Assembly (NCBI RefSeq): GCF_002945325.1 | Contig: NZ_CP026606.1 | Span: forward strand, 810,001 to 842,000 | DNA from: Methanococcus maripaludis | Lineage (GTDB): Archaea > AGJL01 > Methanococci > Methanococcales > Methanococcaceae | Length of the DNA stretch: 32,000 bases | Reading direction: 5' to 3' | Shown: positions 1 through 13,818 of the stretch, piece by piece | Layout of the letters: every line of letters begins with the position of its first letter | Position numbering within the stretch: position 1 is the stretch's first letter | Notes under the pieces: model-generated | What the model saw: only the letters and a program-made list of their open reading frames with translations | Told to the model about the DNA's origin: nothing | The model's database searches: none | Program-made: the position numbers and the translations under genes

Positions 1-1212
1 ATGTATTGTCTGAGACTCCATTGCTTCTAGAATATATGATAAAACACTTCTTTCAACGGTTAATTCATCAAGACATGCAGTACCGCCGTTTGCTTTTACT
101 AATACTCCTGGTTTTATGACCCAAGTACTGTCTCCAATTTCAGTTTTTTCCTGGACCACACCAGCTGTCAACCCAACTCCTGAAGCAGTTGAAATCGAGC
201 TGTAAACACAACCTGGAACTCCAGCAATGAATCTTAAAATATCACTTTTTCCAGTTCCAGGATCCGTTATTAATAAAATATGGCTGTCTGCTCGTTTTTT
301 TCCTTTTTTAACACCTCTGACCTGCTGTAAGAGAATAGATTGCTTTATTATCTCGTTTCCTTTGATTTGTGGTGCAATTCTTCCCGAAAGAATGTTTAAA
401 ACGTCTTTGTTTTTTGCGAGACTTTCAAACTGTTTAATTTCATTTTCAGTGAATGATACATCCAGTTTTTCGGTTACTGGTTCGCAATTGTATCCTCCGA
501 TTAAAATGTCATGAAGCGGGATTTTCTTATTTTTCTGGTTTTTTATTGGAATTCCCGTGACTTTGATCCGTCCGCAGTAGATTCCGGGCGTGTATTCGAG
601 TAATACACTTATGAATTTTGGAGGATCTTCGGGATCATCCATTAAATCCAACGGCTGCTGAATTTTTAGTTCCTGGTAATCTACATATTTTGATTCTTCA
701 TCCAGCAGCAACATATTTTGAGAACACTTTGGACACTGGGGCCCCATGTGCATTTCAAAAGGCCTTTCAATTGTCACTTTTTTCTTCTGGCCGCATGATG
801 CACAGACATAAACTGCTTCTTTTAGGGCCAACTTGATTTTAGTTGCCATTACAACTATTCCTTCAACTTCAACGAGTTTTCCATAATTTTCCCCCTTAAT
901 GTCCTCGATAGTCATTGGTTTTCCGTTAGAATTTCTATTCAATGATTCTGGAAGATTTTTTACAGTAACGGTGCAGTCTGCATCAGCCATTTTGTATGAA
1001 AAATAAGCATCCGCATAAGCTTCATTTAAGAGTTCCAGTGCTGAATAGGGGTTTTCTTCCAGATAATCTAAAAATTCAAAGAAACCATAATCATGAACGT
1101 TTTTTAAATCAACTACCACTCTTTTGGTTTCAGATATTATATCATCGAGGTGAACTTCCTTAAAATACGGAACTAACCTTGACATTAACTTTGATTTTAT
1201 TTTGTCATCCAA
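1..1212 (-). CDS. mcm: MCM replicative helicase, N-terminal about 404 codons (gene continues past the left window edge)
   Basis: Absent from the ORF track because it is truncated by the window. My own minus-strand translation from TTG at 1212 (G-run RBS at 1221-1228; alternative ATG at 1185) reads MDDKIKSKLMSRLVPYFKE... It contains a CxxC...CxxC zinc finger (CASCGQKK...CPKCS), Walker A ILLITDPGTGKSDILRF, Walker B-like ACLDEL, and the MCM-typical ILEAMESQTIH at the edge. The frame is open for all 1212 nt. Confidence 0.85.
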   Translation of the reverse strand, partial: MDDKIKSKLMSRLVPYFKEVHLDDIISETKRVVVDLKNVHDYGFFEFLDYLEENPYSALELLNEAYADAYFSYKMADADCTVTVKNLPESLNRNSNGKPMTIEDIKGENYGKLVEVEGIVVMATKIKLALKEAVYVCASCGQKKKVTIERPFEMHMGPQCPKCSQNMLLLDEESKYVDYQELKIQQPLDLMDDPEDPPKFISVLLEYTPGIYCGRIKVTGIPIKNQKNKKIPLHDILIGGYNCEPVTEKLDVSFTENEIKQFESLAKNKDVLNILSGRIAPQIKGNEIIKQSILLQQVRGVKKGKKRADSHILLITDPGTGKSDILRFIAGVPGCVYSSISTASGVGLTAGVVQEKTEIGDSTWVIKPGVLVKANGGTACLDELTVERSVLSYILEAMESQTIH

Positions 1213-1224
1213 ATTAAAACCCCC

Positions 1225-1449
1225 TCACTGTTTAACATCTTTTTGAGGTTCTGGACCTTCTGTTTCGACTTTTTTAATGATTCGATCCATCAGTGCTTTT
1301 ACATCGTCGCATGCACTGATAATTCCCGGTCTAAATGCATCTTTGAAATCATCCTGGCTAGTTTCCCATAAATCAGTGTCTACAAAAACGAGTAAAAGTT
1401 TAAAAGTATTTCTTATTTCTTCAGTTTCTAATTTTATCATATTATTCAA
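1225..1449 (-). CDS. hypothetical small acidic protein (74 aa), immediately upstream of mcm in the same operon
   Basis: ORF track. Its stop TGA (1225-1227) lies 12 nt upstream of the mcm start. It overlaps the upstream ORF by 8 nt (operon-like packing). No recognisable motif. Confidence 0.5.
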   Translation of the reverse strand: MNNMIKLETEEIRNTFKLLLVFVDTDLWETSQDDFKDAFRPGIISACDDVKALMDRIIKKVETEGPEPQKDVKQ

Positions 1450-1672
1450 CCTCTTTTAACAATTGTTTAGTTAATTCTTCGTCTTCTTCAATTATGGTTA
1501 TTAAAACGGTCTTGCCGATGTATTCTTTAGGTAGTTTTGGTTCAATATTTGCAGAATTGCCGTGTTCAGCTACTTTTGCAATAAATGTCGGAAGTGCTGA
1601 TCTCGGCTTCCTCCAGGTTTTCTTCTTGACTTCTATTCTGACCACCTTTTGGATTAATTTCTTCATTTTCAA
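1442..1672 (-). CDS. small protein, possibly AbrB/SpoVT-like fold (76 aa)
   Basis: ORF track. The segment AKVAEHGNSANIEPKLPKEYIGKTVLITII resembles the G-x-S...(I/L)PK...GK-V-hydrophobic pattern of archaeal AbrB/SpoVT-type swapped-hairpin proteins. The N-terminal 35 codons overlap the 198-aa ORF, so the true start is uncertain. Confidence 0.4.
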   Translation of the reverse strand: MKMKKLIQKVVRIEVKKKTWRKPRSALPTFIAKVAEHGNSANIEPKLPKEYIGKTVLITIIEEDEELTKQLLKEVE

Positions 1673-2162
1673 GCTTTTTTAAAGCCTTATTCAACAATTC
1701 AATAAGCTGGAAGATTTTTTCCGTGATTTTAGGTCTTAATGATATTTTAACACGTTCAGGAGTATTTTCCCAGTCATCTGTAAACAATAGTTCTAAAATC
1801 CGGTTAAAGTTCTTCAGGTGTCCTTTTCTGCAATTTTCCGAGCTTTCTGGAACGATCGTTCTTTCCAAAAGCCTCGTTTGAAGTTCTTCAATTATCCGGT
1901 CCTTTTCTTCGAGTTCGAGATTTTTGGTTTTAATTAAAGTTTCAATTTCTCGATCTTTTTGCTTTAATTGAAATTTTAGAAGTTCATTTTCTGCAAAAAG
2001 TGTTAAATTTTCGAATACTTTCCGAATCTGGCCCCGGAAGAAATCCGCGTAGTTTTTGTATTCTTCCGAGTGTTCTATGATTTTAAGTAGACATTTTTCG
2101 TCGGATTTTTCCATTTTCATGGTAAATACTTTATATGGCCCCAGTTCTCGATTTCTCGCCAT
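1566..2162 (-). CDS. hypothetical coiled-coil protein (198 aa)
   Basis: ORF track. The central region is heptad-rich (LKFQLKQKDREIETLIKTKNLELEEKDRIIEELQTRLLE). The last 107 nt overlap the next ORF in another frame. Confidence 0.55.
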   Translation of the reverse strand: MARNRELGPYKVFTMKMEKSDEKCLLKIIEHSEEYKNYADFFRGQIRKVFENLTLFAENELLKFQLKQKDREIETLIKTKNLELEEKDRIIEELQTRLLERTIVPESSENCRKGHLKNFNRILELLFTDDWENTPERVKISLRPKITEKIFQLIELLNKALKKLENEEINPKGGQNRSQEENLEEAEISTSDIYCKSS

Positions 2163-2393: not shown

Positions 2394-2418
2394 TTCACCT
2401 CACCAGTTGTACACATAT

Positions 2419-2432
2419 CCACAATATTGTGG
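2419..2432. promoter_or_regulatory. perfect 14-bp palindrome CCACAATATTGTGG in the divergent control region
   Basis: Read directly. Lies between the minus-strand mcm operon and the plus-strand wHTH gene. Further palindromes follow: CGCAAATTTGCG (2470-2481) and TGACCAT-N12-ATGGTCA (2532-2557). Confidence 0.35.
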
Positions 2433-2566
2433 ACAATAATAACTTAACTTAATTATTATAAATAATTTACGCAAATTTGCGGATATAACTAAAATAGTTG
2501 TCATTACAAAATATAGTTAAATATACAAAATTGACCATATTAGCAAAATAATGGTCAGAGGATACT

Positions 2567-2869
2567 ATGTTATTAAAACTGATTGCAAAAACACACGCTT
2601 CTGAAATAATAAAATCTCTTGAAAAAAACGATGAATTACACTTTGGGGGCATTTGTAAATACGTTGAAGGCCATAAAAACAGCATTAACCGAATTTTGCA
2701 GGAACTCTACGATGAAGGAATAGTTGAAAAACGGGAAGAAAATTATTCTCCTAAAATATCAAAATCGTATTATAAACTAACAGATTTCGGAAAAGAAGTA
2801 TCGAAAATCATCGACCAGCTCGAAGTTTTGGAGCATAGATATTACGAAGCTAAAAATAAACCTCTTTAA
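2567..2869 (+). CDS. small winged-helix (wHTH) DNA-binding protein, paralogue 1 (100 aa)
   Basis: ORF track, with GAGG RBS before the ATG. The pattern ...ELHFGGICKYVEG.HKNSINRILQELYDEGIVEKREE...YYKLTDFGKEV fits helix-turn-helix + wing (ArsR/PadR/MarR-like). About 40% identical by hand alignment to the 3536-3838 product. Confidence 0.75.
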   Translation: MLLKLIAKTHASEIIKSLEKNDELHFGGICKYVEGHKNSINRILQELYDEGIVEKREENYSPKISKSYYKLTDFGKEVSKIIDQLEVLEHRYYEAKNKPL

Positions 2870-3178
2870 AAAAATATTATTAACATTTATTTTGTAAGTA
2901 CTTACGAAATCATTTTTAGTTTAAAAAAAGTTCAAGGTTTCTTTTTTCTTAACCTGTTTTCATTTATATATTAAACCTAAAATGTAATCAAAAGTCATTA
3001 TCAAAAACAGTCTTTTTTCTTTTTATTTATTTTATTTCGTATATACAGAATTATCTAATAATCTGATTTTGTATATACGAAATCGTTTAAGTAATTCTTG
3101 CAAAAATAGGATTTGGTATTATTTTTTAGCATGTTTTGTATGAATAATTTATTTTGTATATACAAAATAATTGAAAAA
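2852..3178. repeat. noncoding repeat block A (about 327 bp), near-identical to block B at a +996 bp offset
   Basis: Direct comparison: 2911-3178 versus 3907-4174 align without indels, with about 6 substitutions. Contains a TTTATATA box (2963-2970), T-runs, and palindromes of the TTTTGTATATACAAAA family at 2890-2909, 3035-3050, 3067-3082 and 3153-3168. Confidence 0.9.
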
Positions 3179-3228
3179 TTAATAAAAAAATAATCATTTG
3201 AATCAGAATGAGTTGTAATATTATTCTA

Positions 3229-3535
3229 AAAAATAAACTCTTTTAAAAAATAATACTCAATTTTATTTTAGGTAGGCACCTCAAATCCAAATAGATAAAA
3301 AATTATACTTAATCTTTTTTTCATGATTTAAAATTGAATATAAATAAAATCTATATTTGTAGATTAATGTAATGTTTTTAGATTGCCAAAACCAATAATT
3401 AATTGGGCCATTAAATAATTTGAGGTACCACTAATTCCAAGGATTTTAATTAAGGGTACCTTTTATTTATTTTTAAAAATCCAGTAAGTTATTAATCAGT
3501 ATGATTTCATAATTAATTTATATGAAAATGCTTAA
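3229..3535. repeat. noncoding module X1, homologous to X2 (6334-6593)
   Basis: Shared anchors: AAAAATAAAC(C)TCTTT(T)AAA...TTATTTTA, GGGCCAT..A(T/G)ATAATTT...GTACCA.CTAATT. Internal inverted repeat GGCACCTCAAAT (3275-3286) / ATTTGAGGTACC (3418-3429). A TTTCATA-N9-TATGAAA inverted repeat (3504-3526) overlaps the likely promoter of the next gene. Confidence 0.7.
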
Positions 3536-3838
3536 TTGGGCGATAATGTGATTTTAAAAATGATTAATAAAAAGCACGTTAAAGAAATATTATATCTATT
3601 AAATAGTGTTGAGGAACTTTATTTTGCGGAAATATGTAATAATATCCCTGAAGCACACAAAGGAAGTATTAATCGGACGTTGCAGGAATTATATGATTTT
3701 AAAATGGTTTCAAAAAGGGAAGAAGGAACTGCTAAACTTTCAAAAACATTTTATTCGATTACAGATCTTGGAAAGGAATCATTAAAGTTTTACGAACTTG
3801 AAAAAGAAGTGGAAACCAAGTACAATATAACAGAATAA
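3536..3838 (+). CDS. small winged-helix (wHTH) DNA-binding protein, paralogue 2 (100 aa, TTG start)
   Basis: ORF track. Same architecture as paralogue 1 (HKGSINRTLQELYD...SKREEG...FYSITDLGKE). Confidence 0.7.
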   Translation: MGDNVILKMINKKHVKEILYLLNSVEELYFAEICNNIPEAHKGSINRTLQELYDFKMVSKREEGTAKLSKTFYSITDLGKESLKFYELEKEVETKYNITE

Positions 3839-3847
3839 TACTTTATT

Positions 3848-4205
3848 AAAAATAAACCTCTTTAAAGAAATAATACTAATAACTATTTTGTAGAGCTATA
3901 CAAAATCATTTTTAGTTTAAAAAAAGTTCAAGGTTTCTTTTTTCTTAACCTGTTTTCATTTATATATTAAACTTAAAATGTAATCAAAAGTCATTATCAA
4001 AAACAGCCTTTTTTCTTTTTATTTATTTTATTTCGCATATACAGAATTATCTAATAATCTGATTTTGTATATACAAAATCGTTTAAGTAATTCTTGCAAA
4101 AATAGGATTTAGTATTATTTTTTAGCATGTTTTGTATGAATAATTTATTTTGTATATACAGAATAATTGAAAAAAGGATTTTGTATATACTGAATTTTAA
4201 AAAAG
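3848..4205. repeat. noncoding repeat block B (about 358 bp), copy of block A plus one extra palindrome
   Basis: See block A. Palindrome-family sites at 3886-3905, 4031-4046, 4063-4078 (perfect), 4148-4163 and 4179-4194. Confidence 0.9.
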
Positions 4206-4285
4206 TTTAGTTTATTCTGTGGAGTAATTCAAAACTGGATCTGTTGAAAAACGTATTTTTTGAATTGTTGTAGGGAAAAACGAGC

Positions 4286-5947
4286 TTATTTTAATAATTT
4301 ATTTTTTAAAATATCTCTTTTAAAAAACATTAAATTTCTAAAAAGGAGCTGTTTTGCATATGGATCTTTTTCATCACAATTAATATCTGCAGGGAAATAT
4401 AAATCTGATTTTAAAAGCAATGCGTTAATATACGCTTCCAAAATCAATGTTCGAGGATCTTTTAATTCCACTAAAGAATTTTTAGCATCCATTAAATATT
4501 TCAAACCCATATGTTCTAGTCCTAATTTGGAGTAACATTCATAAACATGGCGAAGGGTCTGAATATATGCGTATAACTCACCAGAATTTCGATAATAGGA
4601 TTCTAACTTAAAATTTATGGTCAAAGCATGGCAATAATAACCAATACGGAAAAAGTACTCTGAATAATTTGGTAAAATACAGTATTCTGAATTATTGTTC
4701 ATATTTTTTGCAACAACCAATGCTTTATCCAATATTGGTTTAGCTTCAATATATCTCTTAGTTTCCAAATAGGATGTTGAAATGGTAATGTAAAACGGCA
4801 GTTGAAATGCGTATATATGTTTTAAAACTTCTTTGTCAGTATTTTGACTTTTTAACTCATTGATTAGTAGTTTAATATGATCTAAGGCACCTAAGCAGAT
4901 TTTTTCTACTTGGGTATGCTTTCCAATTTTTAGATTTTTTTGTGCATAAAATTCCAAGGCACAAAGACGTTCTATAATATTTTCAGAAAAAAGTGCTTTT
5001 AAACTGTAATTCTCACTTAAATCCCATTCACCAACATTTCTCAAAAATTGAGAAATAACATAGTTTTTAAGCCTACTTTCAACATTTTTTGACCATATTT
5101 TTATTTTGATTTTCCACTCATTATTTTTGAAACTTAAATCGGTATATCCTCCGATATTCTCGGAATATAATTCCCAAATTGTTTTTACAAATTCATTGGT
5201 ATCCATAAAAACTTCATGAAAATCATAACTCTTTAAAAATTCTTTTTTAGAAACGTCTGATTTAGAATGGTTTACAACGGCTATTTTCTTTTCTAGATTA
5301 CTACATTTTTTAAAAATTGGGTTTATGTCATAAAAATCAGAAAAACTGTAACCCATAAAAATCAAACTATCATCATTGTATAACATGTCTTCCAAGACTT
5401 TTGCACGTATTTCTAAATTATTCTGGTTTGCAACGTTTTTTATCGTGTGTTTTAATGAATCTACGTTAGAAATGCAGCCGTGAATTTTGTAAATTTTCAA
5501 AATATTTTCGTCATTTAAAGAATTTTCCAGATCTTTTTCAGTTCTATATACTTTATAATCCCTATTTTCGACCATTCCTTCATCGATCATGGCTTTTTCT
5601 ATTAGTTCATCAAAATTTGTAGTATATATGGATCCTAGAAAACCCTGTTTTGCTAATTTTGCCATTAAAACATGATTTGAATTTGGAATTCCACAGTCAT
5701 AAACTTTCAAAAGCTCAGCCGATTCATTATTTAAAAATTCCATGTAAACTTCAAACGCTATGTCTTTTTTTAGTATTCTTTCAGCATCTTCTTGATTAAC
5801 CATTTTTAATAGTATCTCTTTGATAAACTCGTTAACTGAAGGAAGGCCTGAATCATAAGAGATGCCCGAACCTACGAAAAAAGAAAGTTGGCCTTTTGAC
5901 ATACTTCTAAAATCAAATTTTTCTAAAATTTCGTTTAAGTTTTCCAT
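4286..5947 (-). CDS. SIR2-family (SIR2_2 / defence-associated sirtuin-like) N-terminal domain fused to a TPR-like helical-repeat C-terminal domain (553 aa)
   Basis: ORF track. Motifs in the order seen in ThsA-type SIR2 domains: LSFFVGSGISYDSGLPS, IYTTNFDELIEKA, KIYKIHGCIS (candidate catalytic His), LIFMGYSFSDFYD. The C-terminal about 270 aa is helical and repeat-like (e.g. EFYAQKNLKIGKH..., YIEAKPILDKALVVAKN..., YECYSKLGLEHMGLKYLMDAKN). Confidence 0.75.
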   Translation of the reverse strand: MENLNEILEKFDFRSMSKGQLSFFVGSGISYDSGLPSVNEFIKEILLKMVNQEDAERILKKDIAFEVYMEFLNNESAELLKVYDCGIPNSNHVLMAKLAKQGFLGSIYTTNFDELIEKAMIDEGMVENRDYKVYRTEKDLENSLNDENILKIYKIHGCISNVDSLKHTIKNVANQNNLEIRAKVLEDMLYNDDSLIFMGYSFSDFYDINPIFKKCSNLEKKIAVVNHSKSDVSKKEFLKSYDFHEVFMDTNEFVKTIWELYSENIGGYTDLSFKNNEWKIKIKIWSKNVESRLKNYVISQFLRNVGEWDLSENYSLKALFSENIIERLCALEFYAQKNLKIGKHTQVEKICLGALDHIKLLINELKSQNTDKEVLKHIYAFQLPFYITISTSYLETKRYIEAKPILDKALVVAKNMNNNSEYCILPNYSEYFFRIGYYCHALTINFKLESYYRNSGELYAYIQTLRHVYECYSKLGLEHMGLKYLMDAKNSLVELKDPRTLILEAYINALLLKSDLYFPADINCDEKDPYAKQLLFRNLMFFKRDILKNKLLK

Positions 5948-5953
5948 AATATC

Positions 5954-6154
5954 TTACAAAATATCCAAAATACGATTTATTCCATTAAAAAGCATATCAA
6001 TTGCACCATCAGGATCATTCGATGCTACTTTTATAAATTTTAAGGTAAATAATGATAAAAAAATCAGAGCAAACCCCATTAATATTCCCAAAATCGGGTG
6101 TAATTCTCCTTTTTTAGACCTAATCAAATTTTTAACTAAATTTAAAAGAATCAA
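5954..6154 (-). CDS. small single-pass membrane protein (66 aa, TTG start), co-operonic with the SIR2-TPR gene
   Basis: ORF track. Hydrophobic segment HPILGILMGFALIFLSLFTL. Its stop lies 6 nt before the SIR2 start codon. Preceded by the GGGGGCGAA leader and an A/T box. The overlapping plus-strand ORF 5862-6170 looks like a low-complexity antisense shadow. Confidence 0.5.
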   Translation of the reverse strand: MILLNLVKNLIRSKKGELHPILGILMGFALIFLSLFTLKFIKVASNDPDGAIDMLFNGINRILDIL

Positions 6155-6225
6155 CCTATTCGCCCCCTAAATTTCGATATAATTATATGGTTGAATTTAA
6201 AATATATTAACTAATCGATTTTGAA
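6155..6225 (-). promoter_or_regulatory. diverged fourth copy of the shared promoter/leader cassette (drives small-TM + SIR2-TPR)
   Basis: On the minus strand it shares TTCAAAATC (distal), TAATTATAT (A/T box) and GGGGGCGAA (leader) with the cassette upstream of the OLD gene, in the same order and with similar spacing. Confidence 0.45.
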
Positions 6226-6246
6226 TTTGAAAAGAAAGGGCGATAA

Positions 6247-6324
6247 ACCTTTTATGAATTAGAATCAGCTTTTGAAGAGTTAAAAGCAGATCAGAAAATA
6301 GTATACCAAATCGTTAAAGAATAA
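6247..6324 (+). pseudogene. 3' remnant of a third wHTH paralogue (…TFYELESAFEELKADQKIVYQIVKE*)
   Basis: My own translation. The frame is open only from 6247 and has no start codon. FYELE...E matches the C-terminus of paralogue 2 (KFYELEKEVE). It is followed by the same AATAATACTTT..AAAAATAAACCTCTTTAAAGAA 3' flank as paralogue 2. Confidence 0.5.
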
Positions 6325-6333
6325 TACTTTTTT

Positions 6334-6593
6334 AAAAATAAACCTCTTTAAAGAATATTACTCAAGATTATTTTATGGACGGTACATGAAACTCCCATTA
6401 ATTAAAAAAATCCATTAAGTTTATTTTTTAATCATATTTTTATTTAAATACTAAACCAGCGGTTTTTTGAAAAAAGTAATCTTATCCACTTAACTATTTA
6501 GAATATTTGGGGCCATATTAGATAATTTCGTGTACCATCTAATTTTAAAAAATCTTATTTTATGTGCCATGAAATAATTTAAAGAAATGGGTA
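6334..6593. repeat. noncoding module X2, homologous to X1
   Basis: Inverted repeat GGTACATGAAAC (6381-6392) / ATTTCGTGTACC (6525-6536), spaced 132 nt versus 131 nt in X1. See findings. Confidence 0.7.
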
Positions 6594-6700
6594 AAAAATA
6601 GGACTTAGTATTATTTTTTAGTATGTTTTGTATGAATAATTTATTTTGTATATACAGAATAATTGAACTGGGGATTTTGTATATACAGAATTTTTGAAAT
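6594..6700. repeat. partial repeat block C (3' 107 bp of block B)
   Basis: AAAAATAGGA.TTAGTATTATTTTTTAG.ATGTTTTGTATGAATAATTTATTTTGTATATACAGAATAATTGAA...GGATTTTGTATATAC.GAATTTT matches 4100-4205. Palindrome sites at 6644-6659 and 6675-6690. Confidence 0.85.
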
Positions 6701-6705
6701 AGAAC

Positions 6706-8463
6706 TTATTTAAGTTGAAAAGAATACATTTGATCGGTTATGATAATAACATCTGGTTCATCTTCCTTTTTTTTGTTCACGCGCATCTCATAAGTCTTTT
6801 TTTGGAATTCATCATATAATTTTAAGAATTTATCGTATTGTTCTGAAGTTAATTGTGTTTTTTTATGGGTTCCTGCAATATTCAAAAATTTGTTTTTTCT
6901 GATTTGATCTAACTCAAAATTTACTCCGTTATGCGGATTTGTTACGTCATTATCCCCTAATTTGTATAATTCAAGCAAATAATTTAAATTCTCTGAAAAA
7001 TTGTCTTTTTCCGAAAATAAATACTCCATTAAGAAATAAATTACACTGTTTTCAACTACCAAATGATCATTAAAATCGAAACCATCACTACCATAGAGTT
7101 CTTTAATTTTTTTAAATAACAAATAAGACGAAAAATTAAAAAAATCGTCAGTGTCGTGTATTTTATTTATAAATAAATCGTAGTTGCATTGGCTAAGTAC
7201 AAACAATACGTTAAGAAAATAATCCTTTCCGAGATCTGAATCAATAATCCCCTTTAATATCTCCTCTATTTCAACAGATAATGCTGATCCAAAAGTTGTT
7301 TCTAAAAATTTTGGAGATTTTAATGCATTTACTGCAATTAATATCATTTCTCGGTAAATGAATAGTAACCTACGTCTTTGAAATTCCTCAAAAATTTGTT
7401 TTTTGGATAAATATACTATAGTCCTATACTTATCAAGAAATTGTCTAACATCGATTCCGTCATTGATACTCCAGTTTATATCTCTTTTTTTGACAATATC
7501 ACTAATTAAGTGCATATTTTTAATTATATCACGAGTATAGTCTTCATTATGGTTGATATTTGGATTTTTTAAAAGGCCATAATAAAAAGTAGCAAAATAA
7601 CAAGGTAACTTTACATAAGTTTGTAAATCATTTGTTTTTGAGTATTCAACATATAATTTACTTTCAAAATCTTCAAATTTTTTATGAGTTTCTTCAAGTA
7701 AATATTTAAAAACCTCCTTATCTCGACTATCTGCAGTTTTTCTGAATAAAAGATCTAAATATTGTAGGGGATATTTTGAAAAATGGTTTTCATTTTTTCC
7801 AAAAAATCCCAATTTAATCTTTGAAAGATATTCTTTGGTATCTTCAAATTTAATTTCATCCAATACATTTTTTACAGTATTTTCGGGTTTCATAAACTTT
7901 ATAATTTCATCGATATAAAAAAATAAAGCAATAAAGTTAGAAACGAGCACCATTAATCCAAAGAATACTATAAAAGAACTTAATAAATTAGTTGAAGGTA
8001 GAAATGCCCCGATAATTGAACTAAACCCTAAAGATAAAATTATTAAAAATAAATAAGCTTTAAAAAAACTTTTATTCATAAATAGGTCTAAAATACGGGT
8101 TGAATAATTATTCGAAGTTGAATTTATTGTTGCAACTGAAAACGCGACAATAAATGCACCCAATATTGATATTCCCGAACTTGCTGTTTTAAAAAGATTT
8201 TCAATATTATTGCTTGAAATATCTGCAGATACAGGCAGATAAAAATAAATTAAAAATGAAATTAAGGAAGATAAACCTAAAATTTTTTTCAGTTTTGGGC
8301 ATTGTTCTTTAATATATTTGATATATGGCTTTATTTTGGGATCAATATTCTCTTTATTGCGCCAATATTTAACAATAAGAAACATTGCGATTAAAAAGAG
8401 CGAATATACTTTAAACATATCCATATAATTCACGAAAGAATTTATCAAACTTAAAAACCCCAT
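6706..8463 (-). CDS. multi-pass membrane protein (about 5 TM in the first 190 aa) with a large helical cytoplasmic C-terminal domain (585 aa); N-terminus possibly DUF2254-like
   Basis: ORF track. Hydrophobic segments by eye. The stretch ATINSTSNNYSTRILDLFMNKSFFKAYLFLIILSLGF resembles the (Q)xxxxxS(P/T)R(I/L)L motif I associate with DUF2254 membrane proteins (unverified). Preceded by promoter cassette copy 1. Confidence 0.6.
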   Translation of the reverse strand: MGFLSLINSFVNYMDMFKVYSLFLIAMFLIVKYWRNKENIDPKIKPYIKYIKEQCPKLKKILGLSSLISFLIYFYLPVSADISSNNIENLFKTASSGISILGAFIVAFSVATINSTSNNYSTRILDLFMNKSFFKAYLFLIILSLGFSSIIGAFLPSTNLLSSFIVFFGLMVLVSNFIALFFYIDEIIKFMKPENTVKNVLDEIKFEDTKEYLSKIKLGFFGKNENHFSKYPLQYLDLLFRKTADSRDKEVFKYLLEETHKKFEDFESKLYVEYSKTNDLQTYVKLPCYFATFYYGLLKNPNINHNEDYTRDIIKNMHLISDIVKKRDINWSINDGIDVRQFLDKYRTIVYLSKKQIFEEFQRRRLLFIYREMILIAVNALKSPKFLETTFGSALSVEIEEILKGIIDSDLGKDYFLNVLFVLSQCNYDLFINKIHDTDDFFNFSSYLLFKKIKELYGSDGFDFNDHLVVENSVIYFLMEYLFSEKDNFSENLNYLLELYKLGDNDVTNPHNGVNFELDQIRKNKFLNIAGTHKKTQLTSEQYDKFLKLYDEFQKKTYEMRVNKKKEDEPDVIIITDQMYSFQLK

Positions 8464-8470
8464 TCACATT

Positions 8471-8530
8471 TAAAATATAATTACATTAAAATAGCCCCAA
8501 CTTAAATATTAAATTTATGATTTTGATTAA
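8471..8530 (-). promoter_or_regulatory. shared promoter/leader cassette, copy 1
   Basis: TAAAATATAATTACATTAAAATAGCCCCAACTTAAATATTAAATTTATGATTTTGATTAAAT. About 95% identical to copy 3. Contains two A/T boxes on the minus strand (TAATTATATTTTA and TTTAATATTTA). Confidence 0.6.
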
Positions 8531-8546
8531 ATAGTGGGGTGGGAAT

Positions 8547-9491
8547 TTGCCTAGCTTTTCACAACGAAACGGCTACAAAGAGCTGAATGAAGACTTATTT
8601 TATGAATGTATGCCTGAAAGTCTTAAAACCAGAATTTGGAATTTTATTCATGAAAATTTTTTAAAATACCAGACTTCGGATTTTTTAAAAGTAGTATGTG
8701 ATGAATTTCTAAAATACGATCTTACTGATGAATGGTATATGGATAATCCGATTACAAATGTCATTAAACCAAAATACCGAAGTTTAAAATGGTTTGAAGT
8801 TTATGACCTTGTTGAATTCTGTTTTGATAATATAAAATATCTCGAAAAAGATAAAAAATTAACATATCACATCCATGAATCCTCAATATGGACACAAAAT
8901 GAAAAATGGGCTTATTATCTAAATAAAGGATTTGTTCAAAAACAAGACTCCAGGGGACTTGCTTATTTAGAATATCCGTTTGAAAAATATCTCAAAGAAA
9001 GATTAAAACGATATTCAGTTCTTTTTAATACATTAATGGAAAAAGAAAGAGCTTCCTATCGACTTATCGAAAATAACATAGTTCCGATAACAAATACGGA
9101 AGAAATAAACGAAATTAAAACTGCTTTAAACCCTCCTGAAAAATATAAATTTGTCGGAGACCACCTAAAAAAGGCTTTAGAACTTTATTCGAACAAAGAA
9201 AAGCCAGATTATGAAAATTCAATAAAAGAATCCATTAGTGCTCTTGAATCCCTAGCTAAAATTAGATTAAATAATGAAAAAGGAACTTTGGGTAGGTTAC
9301 TTCCACAATTGGGATTGCATGAAGACTTCGAACTTGGAATTAAAAAACTTTACAGCTGGACTTCTGATGATAAAGGTGGAATTAGACATGGTAAAAAAGG
9401 AGATACTGGAAGTTATGAAGCTGAAGCCCGATATATGCTTGTTACGTGTTCAACACTGTCAAATTATTTAATTTCGAAGCTTGAAAAATAA
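8547..9491 (+). CDS. AbiJ-like abortive-infection protein (AbiJ N-terminal-domain-4-like + C-terminal HEPN-like domain), 314 aa, TTG start
   Basis: ORF track. N-terminus MPSFSQRNGY...MPESLKTRIWNFIHE matches the FSxRxGY...LRNxLWN signature. The middle and C-terminus (YRLIENNIVPITNTEEINEIKTAL, HLKKALELYSNKEKPDYENSIKESISALESLAKI, LYSWTSDDKGGIRHG, ARYMLVTCSTLSNYL) match the conserved blocks I recall for this family. Confidence 0.6.
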   Translation: MPSFSQRNGYKELNEDLFYECMPESLKTRIWNFIHENFLKYQTSDFLKVVCDEFLKYDLTDEWYMDNPITNVIKPKYRSLKWFEVYDLVEFCFDNIKYLEKDKKLTYHIHESSIWTQNEKWAYYLNKGFVQKQDSRGLAYLEYPFEKYLKERLKRYSVLFNTLMEKERASYRLIENNIVPITNTEEINEIKTALNPPEKYKFVGDHLKKALELYSNKEKPDYENSIKESISALESLAKIRLNNEKGTLGRLLPQLGLHEDFELGIKKLYSWTSDDKGGIRHGKKGDTGSYEAEARYMLVTCSTLSNYLISKLEK

Positions 9492-9494
9492 ATT

Positions 9495-10175
9495 TTAAAC
9501 TATTATTTCTTTTTTATAATAATTATGATAACAAAAAAATGCAGAAACCGCAATTCCGGAAAAGTGAACCATTCCTCCTCCACAATTTGATACTGAAAAA
9601 TCGATCAGAAAAGTTAGAACTGAAAAAAACAATGCAAACATAAAGCTTGACCAAAATCCATTACTTTTTGAAAACTTAGTCTTATTAAATACAAAATTAC
9701 CCATAAAATAATAAGAAATATACATAAATCCATAAACAACTCCTGAAATACCTATTCCGGAATAATTTATCGGTTTTTCATTAATAATCCAGTATGCAGT
9801 GAATGAGATTAATGGAATCAGCCATATGGACATTAATAAAAATAAATATGTTTTAAGATTTAGTTTATATTCTACAATATATCCAAAAATAATCAAATAC
9901 AGCATGTTATATTTTAAATGATCCATATCACGGTGTAAAAAGATTGATGTTATGATTTGCCAGGGTTTTTGAAATAATTCTGAAGGAAAAAAGGCATAAT
10001 TTCTGTAAAACTCGGAATTTTTAATCCACAGGTCTGCACTGTTGTAGTACTGAAGTTCGGGATTTATTTTGATAAAAAATACTGCCATGCAAATAAAAAA
10101 TAATAACATGGTAAAATAAGGGATTTTTAAAAAAAATTTATATTTTTCAAATATGTGCATGGAAAGAACCCCCAT
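9495..10175 (-). CDS. rhomboid-family intramembrane serine protease (226 aa)
   Basis: ORF track. WQIITSIFLHRDMDHLKYNMLYLIIFGYIVE (WxxxT..F.H....H...NM), GISGVVYGF (GxSG catalytic Ser) and VHFSGIAVSAF (catalytic His helix). About 6 hydrophobic helices. Its ATG overlaps the stop of the upstream gene (TAATG at 10173-10177). Confidence 0.85.
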   Translation of the reverse strand: MGVLSMHIFEKYKFFLKIPYFTMLLFFICMAVFFIKINPELQYYNSADLWIKNSEFYRNYAFFPSELFQKPWQIITSIFLHRDMDHLKYNMLYLIIFGYIVEYKLNLKTYLFLLMSIWLIPLISFTAYWIINEKPINYSGIGISGVVYGFMYISYYFMGNFVFNKTKFSKSNGFWSSFMFALFFSVLTFLIDFSVSNCGGGMVHFSGIAVSAFFCYHNYYKKEIIV

Positions 10176-11320
10176 TAAATAAATTGAAGATCTTCAAATT
10201 CTTCTTTTATTTTTTCAGCATATTGCTCTATTTCAGTAAATTCCAATGATAAACTTCCCAATATTGCTTTTTCTTCGTCATAATACCTACCTGCATGTAT
10301 AATTGTCATAAAATATTCTTCAGAATAATCTTCTCCATTAATGTCTTCGTATTTTATGGTTAATTTATACCACGGGTCATTTATTGGATAACTTATGGCC
10401 GATTCTGTGATAATTACTCCCTCATATATCCTTAAAATTTCGTCAGGTAGTGGAATTATTAGATATTTTTTATCATAGGGTGGCAAAACCTCATAATTAC
10501 GCCTAATTTTGGTTTGAACTGATGAACTACTTAAATATCCATTAATATCCGATTCTACCCGTAAATAACCAGAATTATTATCTCCTGGGGTATATTCTAC
10601 GTTTAAATCATTTTTAACTTTAATGCGGTCTGTAGCAGTGTTATAATTTACATCAAATATTAATTTAATATTTTTTGAAAATCCCGTCCCCAGATTATAA
10701 ATTTCGAAATAAGGAATCCGTATATTTCCGCAGATTAAATTATCAGAACTCAGACTAAGTTTATTTTCTCGTTTTTTCCACGTTAACTCATATTTCTTAT
10801 CAGTATTGCCCGGCACACACCTTATTTCAAAATAATTATTTAATGGGGCTAATTTTGGGCGTTGTTGTAATTTTCTCTGTCGTTCCATTTCTTTTCTCTG
10901 ATTAATTGTTTCATAAACCAGATACGCAGTTAGTGTAACCACCCCAATTCCAGAAAACCAGTCAGCAATACTCCCCCAGTACCCCAAATTTAAAAATTGA
11001 GATCCGAAAACGGCCCAAATGAACAATAATGCTCCGGAAGACATTATTAATTGTCCAGCTTCCTTTTGGAAATTTTTTAAGTATTCATTTTGAAACATAA
11101 AATAAATAACAATCCCAAGCATTAACCAAAGTAAATAAAATACCTTTGTGAAGCCATCCAATCCATTCATCCAGGGCATTGATTCAAAGTATGCAAACAA
11201 TACACATATAATAAAAATTAAGAAAAATACGATTAAAACGTAAATTCCGAAAATATCTATTTTTTTGAGTTTTTCGTATAATGACTTAAGTTTAAATTTT
11301 AAATTAGATTTTTTGTCCAA
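10175..11320 (-). CDS. membrane protein: 4 N-terminal TM helices + about 240-aa beta-rich soluble C-terminal domain of unknown family (381 aa, TTG start)
   Basis: ORF track. Hydrophobic segments at about aa 22-45, 57-76, 91-109 and 121-137. Then a basic linker (QRKEMERQRKLQQRPK) and a domain rich in short alternating strands. Preceded by promoter cassette copy 2. Confidence 0.65.
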   Translation of the reverse strand: MDKKSNLKFKLKSLYEKLKKIDIFGIYVLIVFFLIFIICVLFAYFESMPWMNGLDGFTKVFYLLWLMLGIVIYFMFQNEYLKNFQKEAGQLIMSSGALLFIWAVFGSQFLNLGYWGSIADWFSGIGVVTLTAYLVYETINQRKEMERQRKLQQRPKLAPLNNYFEIRCVPGNTDKKYELTWKKRENKLSLSSDNLICGNIRIPYFEIYNLGTGFSKNIKLIFDVNYNTATDRIKVKNDLNVEYTPGDNNSGYLRVESDINGYLSSSSVQTKIRRNYEVLPPYDKKYLIIPLPDEILRIYEGVIITESAISYPINDPWYKLTIKYEDINGEDYSEEYFMTIIHAGRYYDEEKAILGSLSLEFTEIEQYAEKIKEEFEDLQFI

Positions 11321-11337
11321 TAATATCCCGTCCCCTT

Positions 11338-11390
11338 TAAAATATAATTACATTAAAATAGACTCAACATAAATATTAAAGTTATTATTC
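11338..11390 (-). promoter_or_regulatory. shared promoter/leader cassette, copy 2
   Basis: TAAAATATAATTACATTAAAATAGACTCAACATAAATATTAAAGTTATTATTC. About 4 mismatches in 53 bp versus copy 3. Confidence 0.6.
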
Positions 11391-11437
11391 AAAAAATTTA
11401 AAAAAGATAGTAAATACTGATAAATTAAAAATTAACT

Positions 11438-13261
11438 TTATATGTCTAATTTATTGTGTAATTCCTGAATAAAGTTATTATAAACTTCGTATTTTTCCAA
11501 TATTTTCTTTTTGTCATTAATTTCTTTTAGATCTTCAATAACTAGTTCATTTATTTTTTTCTTGTATTCATTAAAATCGTCTGTTGAACCGGATTTCTTC
11601 TCTGTTTTAAACCGTTTTGCATATTCTAAAACTGGCATATCTACAGGTGTTTTAAACCCATCACCCCATATCTCGGATCCGGCATTATCTAAAATATCGG
11701 TTGGAAATAAATCTTCAGTAGTTGCAACATTCTTTTTTAATTTAACTAAATCCAAAATTTCAAAAATATTGTCCATAAATTCGGGATTTTGTTCCTTAAC
11801 ATCTTCAATAACCCGTCTTCCGGCAGTATCTGAATCTAACACTACAAAACCTGGAACTATATCTGTATTAAAAAATTTAACCCATTTTAATACTTCAGGA
11901 GTCCCTCCTGCATCAGTACATCTAACCTCGTTAATAATTTTTTGGTCAAATACCTGTTTTACAAAGGTTTCATAGAGTTTTCTGTCATTGGGGCCCTCAA
12001 ATACAAGGATATTATTGCCCAATATATTTTTTAAAGAAGTTCCTAAGGCTCGGTATATTACTTCTTCTTTTATTGGGAAATTCACGTCGATTTCTTCAAT
12101 AATTGTATTTCCATTTTTTTTAGATACAATAAGGTGATTTTTTAAATCTTTTTTAACCATAAATATGGAATGGGTTGATAAAAATACCACGTTATTTTTG
12201 GAAATATTCAAAAGTTCGTCTCTTAAGTATTCGACGCCACTAGGGTGCAAATGTACTTCCGGTTCATCAATTATTATTACGTTATTTTTCAATGATTCAA
12301 TTTTATTTTGTACTGAAAGATTCAGTAAAATCGACATAAACTGCTTAAAACCATCACTTCTTTCAGTCATTTCCATTTTTCTATATGGTGTGTCTTCATC
12401 ATATGTCAAAACAGTACAGGTCGTACTTTCCAATCTAACTTTTATTTTGATTTTATGTTCAGGCCATAATTGTTGTATGTGTGCCGTAGCTACATCTGAT
12501 AATTTGGATTCATAATTATCCCGAGCACTTTCCTTATTCATTATTTGATCCAATATGGAATTCATATTTTTTTCGTAGCCTGCTAAATAAAAGATATTTT
12601 TCAAAGGTACAGATATATTCGGGTTTTGTTTAAAATTAACCAAATTTATTGGTTGGCCTATCAAATATTTTTCAGAAGATTCCCAAAATATAAATTTAGG
12701 TATTGCTTTTTTTAAATCTTCTAAAACGGCATTTTGAACCAGTTGACTTATTTTTTCTTTTGATATGGATATATAATTTGGAGAATTTTCTGCGGGAACA
12801 TCATTTTTGTTTATTATGTGATTATTACTAGTTGGATTAATCCTATAATCCGATAAATCAGGATACGTAGTCAATAAATTATATGTTACAGCCGTTTCAG
12901 AATTATCCGGCTTTTTTACCAATATTACATTTACCCCAGATATTGAAATAGCACTTGCTAAATTTTTTGGAATAATAGAACTAATTTTAGTTAAAATATT
13001 GATACGATCATCGGAATTAAGCCAAAACTTATAGGTAAACATTATATTTTCATTGTTTTCCTGTGCTTCCATGTTACAATCTTTTACATAATTCAAAGTC
13101 TTTGGTTTATCAAAAACTGAAATCGATTTAAGAATATTACTTTTTCCTGAACCATTTACTCCAAAAAACATTGTATATTTATTATCCGATGTAGGAATTC
13201 TAATTATTTGATCTTTTATGCTTCTAAAATTCTTAATATGTATTTCTTTCAATTCTAACAA
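11438..13261 (-). CDS. OLD-family nuclease (ABC-type ATPase + C-terminal TOPRIM), 607 aa, TTG start
   Basis: ORF track. IKNFRSIK...FFGVNGSGKSNILKSI (Walker A), SDGFKQ (signature-like), VIIIDEPEVHLHPSG (Walker B/D-loop), FLSTHS (H-loop). TOPRIM: NILVFEGPNDRKLYE (Glu) and FVVLDSDTAGRR (DxD). Confidence 0.85.
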   Translation of the reverse strand: MLELKEIHIKNFRSIKDQIIRIPTSDNKYTMFFGVNGSGKSNILKSISVFDKPKTLNYVKDCNMEAQENNENIMFTYKFWLNSDDRINILTKISSIIPKNLASAISISGVNVILVKKPDNSETAVTYNLLTTYPDLSDYRINPTSNNHIINKNDVPAENSPNYISISKEKISQLVQNAVLEDLKKAIPKFIFWESSEKYLIGQPINLVNFKQNPNISVPLKNIFYLAGYEKNMNSILDQIMNKESARDNYESKLSDVATAHIQQLWPEHKIKIKVRLESTTCTVLTYDEDTPYRKMEMTERSDGFKQFMSILLNLSVQNKIESLKNNVIIIDEPEVHLHPSGVEYLRDELLNISKNNVVFLSTHSIFMVKKDLKNHLIVSKKNGNTIIEEIDVNFPIKEEVIYRALGTSLKNILGNNILVFEGPNDRKLYETFVKQVFDQKIINEVRCTDAGGTPEVLKWVKFFNTDIVPGFVVLDSDTAGRRVIEDVKEQNPEFMDNIFEILDLVKLKKNVATTEDLFPTDILDNAGSEIWGDGFKTPVDMPVLEYAKRFKTEKKSGSTDDFNEYKKKINELVIEDLKEINDKKKILEKYEVYNNFIQELHNKLDI

Positions 13262-13366: not shown

Positions 13367-13744
13367 TTAAAACATTTTATTTTTAATAACATAGTAAAAA
13401 TCAAGCTCATTTACATAATAAACATGATTTCCTCTTTTAATTTCAAATAAAACTAAACTTTCAGGAATTTTACGAGCTTCTAAAATCTGAAGAATTTTAT
13501 AACTATCATCAGCTAAATCAAAACTTCCAGGAACTATTTCCTGAGCTGATACTTTCAAACACTTTTTAATTAAAATCCCGTCAAAACCGGATGATACGTC
13601 AAAGCTTAAATTGGAGTGAATTTTTCCAGATTCAAAAACCCCTAAATCTTCAAAATGTGAAACCGAGTCTATCGCAGAAATTAACTGACTTCTCAAAATA
13701 TCGTTTAAACTTATGTGTCTCTCTTGATCCAACATGAACCTCAC
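13367..13744 (-). CDS. hypothetical protein (125 aa)
   Basis: ORF track only. No motif recognised. Confidence 0.45.
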   Translation of the reverse strand: MRFMLDQERHISLNDILRSQLISAIDSVSHFEDLGVFESGKIHSNLSFDVSSGFDGILIKKCLKVSAQEIVPGSFDLADDSYKILQILEARKIPESLVLFEIKRGNHVYYVNELDFYYVIKNKMF

Positions 13745-13818
13745 CAGATAAATATTTTATACGATAAGTATCTGGTAAAATAATATATAAAAATTGCGGA
13801 TAAATGGAAAAAAAGAAT

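Follow-up and report, generated by a model that had tools for sequence, protein, structure and literature searches.

Layout of the element and its intergenic blocks

The stretch of DNA analyzed here (the window) comprises 32,000 nucleotides (nt) of Methanococcus maripaludis (NZ_CP026606.1, positions 810,001 to 842,000) and carries an integrated mobile element of this archaeon, in which an intergenic block of about 354 bp, termed block I, separates regulator genes from variable anti-phage cargo. Pfam and PADLOC annotation, together with the contexts of homologs, gave the order of the element: a tyrosine integrase, a DUF2540 protein, a 674-amino-acid (aa) MCM helicase, small genes including one with DUF2080, and a gene for a 198-aa protein, all on one strand; then one to four tandem winged helix-turn-helix (wHTH) genes, divergent from this backbone; block I; the cargo; and conserved flank genes, whose products are 122 to 137 aa across the related elements, followed by a ParE-type toxin gene and then the right end. 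The backbone DNA is 82 to 99% identical among the related elements. Below, the related loci and contigs compared are given L numbers (L001 is that of strain C5), the blocks in the window are designated JJ copies A, B, and C, and the wHTH paralogs are named by protein length as the 93, 105, 99, and 100 types.

The window holds a stack of modules in which wHTH1 is followed by a block I truncated after its site P3, a microhomology junction with the remnant of a 93-type gene, block III, wHTH2, and a full block I; after the full block come a cassette encoding a SIR2-domain protein, the remnant of a 105-type wHTH gene, the hybrid block C, and a DUF2254 cassette. The regulator genes, junctions, and blocks of this stack, with strand in parentheses, are as follows:

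2567-2869 (+): wHTH1, 100-type HxlR/PadR-like winged-helix regulator of 100 aa (Pfam HxlR, 26.5 bits; cut-off, 20.8)
2851-3178 (+): block I copy A, truncated (block positions 1 to 328), without P4
3164-3193 (+): recombination junction between copy A and block III at the microhomology ATTGAAAAA (BLAST overlap on L012)
3164-3193 (+): remnant of a 93-type wHTH gene, its last codons and stop after the microhomology (BLAST overlap on L012; L012 9230-9259)
3194-3507 (+): block III, a paralogous intergenic block (95.9% identical to L012 9260-9573; aligned to block C), with a 5' box at 3229-3247, a P0-like palindrome at 3275-3295, and GGTACC-core sites at 3424 and 3455 (31 bp apart)
3548-3838 (+): wHTH2, 99-type, 96 aa from the GTG at 3548 (the mechanical open reading frame [ORF] starts at TTG 3536)
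3847-4200 (+): block I copy B, full length (about 354 bp)
6243-6322 (+): 3' remnant of a 105-type wHTH gene, whose frame still reads through to FYELESAFEELKADQKIVYQIVKE and a stop codon (translation; 83% identical to L012 9898-9975; compared with P0007 and P0008)
6321-6700 (+): block C, a hybrid third copy, type II in its 5' two-thirds (6333-6590, with TTTTATG...CATGAAA-type palindromes) and type I in its 3' third (6594-6694, with P3' at 6644-6660 and P4' at 6675-6691)

Block I is about 80% A+T and has the following anatomy, given with the coordinates of copy B and, in parentheses, those of copy A:

3848-3867 (2852-2870): 5' box AAAAATAAACCTCTTTAAAG, beginning about 10 nt past the stop codon of each wHTH gene; wHTH1 reads through it, and it forms the C terminus there
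3886-3905 (2890-2909): P0, a 20-bp palindrome with outer half-sites TTTTGTA/TACAAAA around a 6-bp center, followed by five T residues
3959-3966 (2963-2970): TATA1, TTTATATA, with a conserved 20 nt
4009-4033 (3013-3037): T-rich tract of 25 nt beside P1
4031-4047 (3035-3051): P1, 32 bp before P2
4063-4079 (3067-3083): P2
4130-4143 (3134-3147): half-site
4148-4164 (3152-3168): P3, 31 bp before P4
4179-4195 (lacking): P4

The sequence ATTTTGTATATACAAAAT is a perfect 18-bp palindrome, and block I carries four or five such dyad-symmetric sites of 17 to 18 bp, with two pairs spaced 31 to 32 bp. With up to three mismatches allowed, ATTTTGTATATACAAAAT has nine sites in the window, none of them outside the three blocks (18 strand matches versus 1.25 expected by chance, a number reached in 0 of 100 shuffles), and the core GTATATAC occurs eight times, exclusively in the blocks; in related loci of up to 20 kb, the palindromes are likewise confined to the block. 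Three site types are distinguished by their cores, namely, GTATATAC (type I), ATG..CAT (type II), and GGTACC (type III). Despite the different sequences of the other sites, the 5' box is common to block types I and II and, with two changes, to type III; it contains the palindrome CTTTAAAG, is seen at 2852-2870, 3848-3867, 6334-6353, and 3229-3247, and may serve as a signal for 3' ends or be bound by a further protein. The center of P0 varies yet stays nearly symmetric (AGTACT, GAGCTA, and CGTACG). In a long form of the block, present in L012/L013 and L114/L115, a second TATA box (TATA2, TTTTTATATT) comes directly after P4 and is followed by a Shine-Dalgarno sequence and a plus-strand cargo gene, which differs between the two pairs of loci.

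The palindromic sites are more constrained than the rest of the block, which fits the protein-binding array suggested in a preliminary description of this DNA. The 74%-identical variant of block I in L114 differs from JJ copy B at 10 of 82 positions in P1 to P4 and the half-site, compared with 85 of 267 positions in the rest of the block (Fisher P = 3.5 × 10−4), and among eight type I copies, 4 of 65 columns in the sites are variable versus 47 of 263 elsewhere (Fisher P = 0.02). In the L114 block, P2 is kept at 17 of 17 positions and the four GTATATAC cores at 31 of 32, while the T-tract is just 38% identical. Since the sites are better conserved than other block DNA, they are under selection, which the sequence of the T-tract is not; judged by these comparisons, block I is a real functional noncoding module. 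A 25-codon minus-strand ORF running from an ATG at 4128 through P2 was considered and, having only 13 codons in L114, judged to be noncoding.

Block I lies directly after the last wHTH gene wherever the contig reaches past it (the C5-like L001, L002, L004, and L006 to L010, as well as L011 to L014 and L112), and L114 and L115 have the 74%-identical variant in the same position. It is present once or twice per element, always directly behind a wHTH gene, which is of the 100 type in C5, L011, and L012 and of the 99 type in L014. The C5 copy occupies 10286-10637 of L001, and the blocks of the strains are 90 to 95% identical to JJ copy B. The contigs L003 and L005, which have the C5-type wHTH gene, end 5 to 13 bp past its stop codon, at the start of the block; these assembly breaks may be due to multiple copies or strain heterogeneity. 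In the loci examined, the block always travels with wHTH genes and the MCM backbone, in line with the preliminary description; the contrary case that it had allowed for, a common repeat unrelated to the element, fares poorly as far as the sequences examined reach, because in none of them did block I turn up outside this element family. With blastn in its distant mode, 2400-4300 had no match in PLSDB or INPHARED; the invariant 29-mer of the block is absent from IMG/VR and the Joint Genome Institute (JGI) metagenome collection; a palindrome-pair pattern recovered 96 loci from the GTDB species representatives, none of them from Methanococcus and all of them chance matches in unrelated bacteria; a collection scan with the 20-mer of the 5' box gave one chance match (L111); and a wHTH profile search of metagenome and viral contigs recovered no relatives. 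The absence of the block from PLSDB, INPHARED, IMG/VR, the JGI metagenomes, and the GTDB representatives shows the family to be narrow, and a literature search found no description of block I or of an element family with DUF2540, DUF2080, the 198-aa gene, a wHTH array, and block I. The family is one of previously undescribed, narrowly distributed integrated MCM plasmids of M. maripaludis.

Mosaic history of the wHTH genes and blocks

When copies A and B are compared without gaps at an offset of +996 bp, agreement stays at background (3 to 9 of 20 positions) up to 2839, climbs from 2851, a position within the final codons of wHTH1, and becomes near-perfect over 2907-3178; no indels occur. BLAST aligned 2851-3178 with 3847-4174 at 94.8% identity over 328 to 329 nt (E = 1.6 × 10−146). 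From 2911-3178 versus 3907-4174, the preliminary description had counted about six substitutions in 268 bp and no indels, and there are exactly six (at 2977, 3011, 3040, 3079, 3115, and 3165); its consensus TATA boxes are where it had placed them, and its hand alignment of wHTH1 and wHTH2, at about 40% identity, was correct (46% over 93 aa in BLASTP; 43.6% for the proteins and 61.6% for the DNA in global alignment). It did not include the start of the repeat within wHTH1, the truncation at 3178, the third copy, the remnant and block III within 3179-3547, or the palindromes. Its interpretation, a 996-bp tandem unit whose gene diverged while the noncoding part stayed fixed, in reversal of the usual order of conservation, does not survive comparison with other strains.

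An alignment of the wHTH proteins resolves the four paralog types, and in L012 and L112 these stand in tandem in the order 93, block III, 105, 99, 100, block I. The 100-type wHTH1 is 97% identical to a "transcriptional regulator" of C5 (P0001), and the 99-type wHTH2 is 100% identical to MMJJ_08800 (P0002) of M. maripaludis and 88.5% identical (global alignment; 89% in BLASTP) to its orthologs in L014 and L112. The complete match of wHTH2 assigns the window most likely to strain JJ or a very close relative. wHTH1 and wHTH2 are old paralogs, and the apparent unit is a mosaic. For orthologous wHTH pairs, identity is 90 to 99% in gene DNA, 88 to 100% in protein, and 90 to 97% in the block, so that genes and blocks are equally conserved; for paralogous pairs (99 versus 100 type), it is 59 to 62% in gene DNA and 44 to 51% in protein, and again 90 to 97% in the block. 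Copies A and B, at 94.5% over the comparable 309 nt, fall within the between-strain range. Block I accordingly forms one orthologous family, whichever wHTH type precedes it, and the contrast between 98% and 46% arises from comparing recently copied DNA with anciently diverged paralogs, not from coding versus noncoding constraint. What looked like reversed conservation is an artifact of paralogy and modular recombination. Noncoding DNA that seems more conserved than coding DNA is thus a trap in scans of mobile elements, where paralogs stand beside recently copied DNA, and one such false lead is removed here.

The mosaic is visible in BLAST matches to L012, which are not colinear: 2574-3175 corresponds to the 100-type gene and block I; 3164-3507 covers the 93-type gene's 3' end and block III (96%; L012 9230-9573); the 99-type gene is matched by 3525-3814 and block I, for a second time, by 3847-4190; and 6250-6324 corresponds to the 105-type gene's 3' end. 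The microhomology ATTGAAAAA is common to block I just past P3 and to the last codons of the 93-type gene. Block III lies between the 93- and 105-type genes in L012 and L112 and, in L012, precedes the 105-99-100 operon. The two-block layout of the window recurs in L112, where the first block (7263-7590) is truncated at the identical position 328, and the junction was therefore inherited and is not an accident of JJ. Block C changes to type I at 6594, and its 3' part is 93 to 97% identical to block I of JJ copy B and L012; owing to this switch, the SIR2 cassette has on either side of it about 100 bp of the block's 3' end (4098-4198 and 6594-6694).

Over its first 56 nt, copy A matches L011 exactly and copy B is near L012/L014 (four differences), with 13 of these 56 positions differing between the two copies. 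Over the remaining 272 nt there are 6 differences between A and B, 10 or 11 between A and the nearest strains, and 11 to 14 between B and the nearest strains. All 10 haplotype variants in 2912-2955 are common to A and B, as is one private variant (3112), and their differences are six singletons; the shared variants are modest evidence for copying or conversion between the two within the JJ lineage. The recent conversion limited to the block that had been proposed earlier is upheld to that extent and is weakened by the closeness of A and B, which only modestly exceeds that between strains.

The model of the preliminary description was a tandem duplication of a wHTH gene plus block, after which rapid divergence would have brought the genes to about 45% identity, with strong constraint or repeated conversion limited to the block keeping the latter unchanged. 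The constant 996-bp offset without indels across the block speaks for it, as does the slightly closer relationship of A and B to each other than to the blocks of other strains; the polyploidy of M. maripaludis and gene conversion in methanogens would also favor it. We nevertheless hold it to be very improbable and, from the alignments, already largely refuted. A duplication implies common descent of the gene and noncoding halves, and instead both gene types have close, separate orthologs in other strains, in other orders, and the first 56 nt of A and B are different haplotypes shared with other strains. It further implies that nothing foreign lies between the copies, and instead a third wHTH remnant joined at the microhomology and a foreign block III (96% to L012) are found there, with the same junction in L112. 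M. maripaludis is polyploid, and gene conversion in methanogens was reportedly documented by Hildenbrand and colleagues in 2011. Polyploidy together with natural transformability would make exchanges of the A/B type easy. The latter trait is described for M. maripaludis in at least one report (PMC10133366).

Proposed role of block I and competing interpretations

We favor, with moderate confidence, the interpretation that block I is an intergenic operator, terminator, and promoter region at the regulator/cargo boundary of a mosaic MCM plasmid, where it also serves as a homology patch. P0 and the T-run that follows it would end the wHTH transcript. P1 to P4, whose pair spacing of 31 to 32 bp corresponds to about three helical turns, are candidate operators for dimers of the HxlR/PadR-like 99- and 100-type wHTH proteins. 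These operators would control the TATA boxes of the boundary, of which TATA1 is internal to the block; the outward TATA2 after P4, present in the long form (L012 and L114), may drive the first cargo gene. P4 abuts TATA2 in both of these loci, and the JJ copies have no promoter of this kind behind them. In two nonhomologous upstream regions, that of JJ/C5 and that of L014/L112, the half-site TATACAAAAT is found at -43 to -50 from the start codon of the head 99/100-type genes (chance expectation estimated from base composition, about 0.008 per region), and this overlap with the putative promoter region of the 99/100-type genes points to autoregulation. Being conserved in elements that otherwise differ, the block could act as a homology patch for the exchange of regulators and defense cargo.

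The wHTH proteins resemble known binders of such sites. wHTH1 scores 26.8 bits with PadR, just below the Pfam cut-off, in addition to its HxlR match, and wHTH2 falls below the cut-offs. A profile search against the Protein Data Bank gave matches to HxlR, MarR, ArsR, and PadR proteins. The AlphaFold model of wHTH1 (predicted local distance difference test [pLDDT] score, 91; predicted template modeling [pTM] score, 0.80) has a winged helix and a 24-residue C-terminal helix; its nearest solved structures, YodB, QsrR (including a DNA complex), HxlR, PadR, and LmrR, are dimeric palindrome-binding repressors (template modeling [TM] score of 0.74 to 0.80 to YodB, QsrR, and HxlR; 17 to 29% sequence identity to the top structural matches). 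Pfam, profile, and model thus all place wHTH1 in the winged helix-turn-helix family fold. MarR-type wHTH dimers bind pseudopalindromes of 16 to 20 bp (PMC6798810), and (pseudo)palindromic sites of this size do stand next to wHTH genes here (nine ATTTTGTATATACAAAAT sites versus about one by chance). With HxlR/DUF24 and PadR/MarR-type repressors the M. maripaludis system shares proteins of about 100 aa with a wHTH and a C-terminal helix and dyad sites of 17 to 18 bp, the same size class. It differs from them in that up to four paralogs stand in tandem on a mobile element and in that the full candidate operators form an array of four or five sites downstream of the gene, not one operator covering the promoter of the gene itself; nor is any ligand or redox sensing evident.

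The recognition-helix motif SINR(I/T)LQELYD is common to the 99- and 100-type proteins, and the 93- and 105-type proteins have other residues at this place. Head 93-type genes are preceded by a GTACCAC site (L012 8830; L114 7853), two GGTACC sites 31 bp apart stand in block III behind 93-type genes, and the type II palindromes come after the 105-type remnant. A strict cognate pairing of the sites with the wHTH gene just upstream was rejected, as block I follows both 99- and 100-type genes and the type I-like sites of L114 lie behind a 93-type gene; a looser pairing by site type and promoter half-sites survives and is suggestive. One element holds several site types and several wHTH recognition helices, yet its backbone proteins are single copy. 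The 17-bp palindromes of three specificity types, with their candidate regulators, could be developed into orthogonal repressor/operator pairs or into replicon parts for the genetics of Methanococcus.

Several observations weigh against this interpretation. In L114 and L115 the sole wHTH gene is of the 93 type, yet the GTATATAC sites are intact in their 74%-identical block; either another protein binds them, or the partner gene was lost recently, or the partner acts in trans. The 3' end of the L114 93-type gene is fused to the tail of a 99-type-like gene, which suggests a deletion. Full palindromes occur only in the block, the wHTH promoters carrying half-sites only. In most strains, including JJ, the adjacent cargo gene converges on the block, leaving no obvious target promoter. 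A and B, with 6 differences in 272 nt, are just modestly closer to each other than blocks are between strains (10 to 14 differences), and intragenomic conversion is weakly supported. A scan with bacterial promoter and terminator models, which do not apply to an archaeon and bear on neither side, gave fewer matches than shuffled controls.

As the main rival interpretation, block I might instead be the replication origin of the MCM element, a live alternative that we regard as unlikely. P0 to P4 would then be iterons, the T-rich tract by P1 the unwinding element at which MCM is loaded, and an element-encoded backbone protein or the wHTH proteins the initiator. The block is the sole large cluster of repeated sites in the element, a uniqueness that holds in loci of up to 20 kb, and the sites are kept in every element with the MCM/DUF2080/198-aa backbone, including L114, which has no 99/100-type wHTH genes; the A+T richness of the block (about 80%) with its 25-nt T-tract beside P1, its position independent of the orientation of the downstream gene, and the origin-like (AT)n core with inverted repeats after the wHTH gene of a distant element of the same layout (L121) point the same way. 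Putative origins of the integrated plasmids of Methanococcales are repeat-rich intergenic regions, usually near a Rep gene (PMC6972569). Such a role sits poorly with the 38% identity of the T-tract in L114, with the dyad symmetry of the sites, as expected of dimeric HTH regulators, with the outward TATA2 promoter after P4 in the long form, and with blocks II and III, which share the architecture with other site sequences in the same element and resemble ordinary promoter regions between genes. The block is also 2.4 kb from the MCM gene, and JJ and L112 would hold two origins each; the GC skew is uninformative, since its minimum in L012 lies at the divergent promoter and tracks gene orientation. 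Iteron-type origins resemble block I in having four or five repeated sites in helical phase (31 to 32 bp) and an adjacent A+T-rich tract, unique within the replicon, and differ in that the sites of block I are palindromic, not directly oriented, and its A+T tract is not kept in L114. A more elaborate version, to which we attach slightly less likelihood still, would make block I both an origin and an incompatibility determinant, with the wHTH paralogs as origin-recognition factors, the three site types and their matching wHTH types as alternative specificity modules, and the stacks in JJ and L112 as relics of cointegrates. This version would imply Orc1/Cdc6-independent loading of an archaeal MCM, and an origin here, if real, would provide a handle on MCM loading in Methanococcales, whose origin-recognition proteins are notoriously hard to identify.

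The remaining alternatives appear far less probable. A small noncoding RNA or a very short transcript from TATA1, with conserved sequence and structure, is improbable, even though TATA1 and about 20 nt downstream (CTAAAATGTAAT.AAAA) are kept in L114 (79%), RNA folding gave z-scores of -2.9 and -2.05, and P0, with different centers in its alpha, beta, and L114 variants, stays dyad symmetric in each, which is compatible with an RNA hairpin as well. The block had no Rfam match at E ≤ 1, the scan of the window finding only a tRNA-Leu and one chance match, and the RNAalifold covariation term is +0.65, with double changes at three pairs and nearly all pairs invariant; the folding signal is explained by the DNA palindromes. 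The strong T-runs begin about 20 nt past the expected start site in type I and are not kept in L114, and the best-conserved stretch (half-site and P3) is far from TATA1, so the short transcript that the preliminary description had envisaged from its TATA boxes and T-runs finds no backing. To a similarly low degree we would credit a passive linker without sequence-specific function, spread recently and by homologous exchange, with palindromes that are mere relics. On such a view block identities of 90 to 97% would be unremarkable beside a backbone at 82 to 99%, the block haplotypes are indeed reshuffled among strains, and every mosaic junction falls in or at blocks. Relics, however, would not be expected to show sites significantly better conserved than the DNA between them, most clearly in the 74%-identical L114 block, or three paralogous block types that keep the architecture and the 31- to 32-bp pair spacing with different site sequences. 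Very improbable, finally, is a centromere-like partition site bound by the adjacent wHTH protein on the model of pNOB8 AspA or TubR/tubC. Repeated sites do lie immediately downstream of a wHTH gene of about 100 aa, and AspA is among the matches (profile E = 0.003; structure rank 33, TM 0.67 to 0.79); yet ordinary repressors are the closer structural matches, the element occurs in integrated form, and the Pfam lists of the window, L001 to L014, L112, and L114 contain no gene for a ParA, ParB, TubZ, or ParM-like nucleoside triphosphatase. AspA, like the wHTH proteins here, which match it weakly in sequence and structure, is a small wHTH protein of an archaeal plasmid with a PadR-like fold and an adjacent palindromic site; the M. 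maripaludis element lacks the ParA/ParB partner genes in these Pfam lists and has its sites downstream, not upstream.

Two recombination devices were also considered. A 15-nt inverted repeat, AAGAAATAATACTAA / TTAGTATTATTTTTT (14 of 15 positions; 3865-3879 and 4110-4124), brackets P0, TATA1, P1, and P2 in beta-type blocks; related matches are 3244-3269 versus 4099-4124, and 6592-6619. An invertible promoter (inverton) was rejected, the repeat being weak in the alpha type and absent in L114 and all aligned copies having one orientation. An integron-like cassette array was likewise rejected, as the boundaries are homologies of about 100 to 350 bp or microhomologies, not short attC cores, and the one integrase present, at the element's far end, is a tyrosine recombinase of generic type.

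Among known systems, integrated MCM-encoding plasmids of Methanococcales have reportedly been described by Krupovic and colleagues in 2010. The element resembles the pT26-2 family in its integration in M. maripaludis, tyrosine integrase, MCM, variable noncore region, and repeat-rich intergenic regions; the KA1/OS7 pT26-2 elements (L119 and L120) have no block I. The pT26-2 relic of C5 is a remnant without detectable limits (Badel et al. 2019; PMC6972569). The small plasmid pURB500/pMMC501 of C5 (L123) shares the DUF2540 and integrase module and has the perfect palindrome TACACGATATCGTGTA three times around a wHTH gene; it is not similar in sequence to block I and lacks both GTATATAC sites and an MCM. 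Its regions 6792-6865, 8224-8262, and 63-400 carry TACACGATATCGTGTA palindromes and AAAAATCGAACATTTT repeats, in the style of block I with other sequences, and, for want of any GTATATAC site, the plasmid was dismissed as the source of the sites. L121 (GCA_054035155.1) has the integrase, DUF2540, a 397-aa HTH_24 protein in place of MCM, DUF2080, a divergent wHTH gene, and Mrr/SNase/AAA-S8 cargo. Behind its wHTH gene, within 7325-7860, a pure (AT)n core of about 80 bp is flanked by inverted and direct repeats (AAATTTGCCGA(G/A)ATTT and CCTACCA/TGGTAGG), a textbook-looking origin candidate.

The cargo slot and the remainder of the window

The cargo at 4286-13261 sits in a slot whose content differs in nearly every strain. 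In the window, it comprises the following:

4286-5947 (-): SIR2-domain protein, cargo cassette 1 (Pfam SIR2_2, 4.5 × 10−15; PADLOC ThsA and SIR2 models)
5954-6154 (-): 66-aa ORF with no assigned function, cargo cassette 1
6706-8463 (-): DUF2254 protein, cargo cassette 2 (Pfam)
8547-9491 (+): AbiJ/PDC-S32 (Pfam; PADLOC PDC-S32, 2.3 × 10−76)
9495-10175 (-): rhomboid (Pfam)
10175-11320 (-): 381-aa protein with no assigned function
11438-13261 (-): OLD-family ATPase-TOPRIM nuclease (Pfam; PADLOC Old, 1 × 10−30)

The SIR2 domain resembles those of ThsA and of SIR2 proteins associated with prokaryotic Argonaute (pAgo). A 91-aa TTG-initiated ORF (4260-4535, +), wholly antisense to the 3' end of the SIR2 gene, is most likely spurious. 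Between the same flanks, other elements encode DUF2254 and Mrr (C5), type I restriction-modification systems (L014 and L112), DUF6414 and SEC-C (L012), or FRG-domain genes (L011 and L114), and the variable slot to the right of block I is an archaeal defense hotspot. In lambdoid phages, boundary sequences act as linker homology between modules, and P2/P4 defense hotspots have reportedly been described by Rousset and colleagues in 2022. The hotspots at module boundaries of temperate phages and their satellites likewise have conserved flanks around a slot of swapped, unrelated anti-phage genes, and the recombination junctions of the M. maripaludis element fall in such a conserved flank. The element differs from these in its archaeal host, its MCM plasmid backbone, and its left flank, which is a noncoding operator-like block in place of a core gene. 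Turnover of an archaeal defense island by recombination at a conserved noncoding flank is thereby documented, and the family presents a three-part layout, of replication/integration backbone, wHTH array plus palindrome block, and swap slot for anti-phage genes, in the genetic model M. maripaludis.

The other features of the element in the window are as follows:

1-1224 (-): N-terminal part of the MCM helicase gene, which runs beyond the window (MCM_OB and MCM P-loop in Pfam; in synteny with the MCM of L001 and L012, 674 aa)
1442-1672 (-): DUF2080 gene (Pfam DUF2080, 6.9 × 10−23), divergent from the wHTH genes
1566-2162 (-): gene for the 198-aa protein, kept beside the wHTH genes in L012 to L014, L112, and L114
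2163-2566 (no strand): divergent promoter region, with TACAAAA(T) half-sites at 2505-2511 and 2524-2530 over the putative wHTH1 TATA region
13367-14232 (-): conserved right-hand flank, genes for 125- and 137-aa proteins, in all related elements (97 to 98% DNA identity to L001, L011, L012, and L014)

The divergent promoter region has three further, unrelated palindromes within 2420-2559 (CCACAATATTGTGG at 2420, CGCAAATTTGCG at 2471, and TGACCAT-N12-ATGGTCA at 2534-2559), in place of which L012 and L114 have palindromes of the GATACCAGTATC type; other proteins of the element probably use these as operators. A gene for a ParE/YafQ/YoeB-type toxin lies in the conserved right arm, at 15120-15407 (-) (ParE_toxin, 3.6 × 10−10), and its homologs in L012 to L014, L114, and L115 are adjoined by a 76-aa gene, the presumed antitoxin. 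About 400 bp at 16523-16945 match both element ends in L012 (355-771 and a region near 19340-19733) and are probably a duplication flanking the attachment site (att) that marks the right end of the element. A tRNA-Leu(TAA) gene lies on the minus strand at 18694-18779, 1.7 kb to the right of this repeat, and the core genes for ThiC, Dph2, Sua5, PurL, and Cdc48 occupy the window from about 17 kb on.

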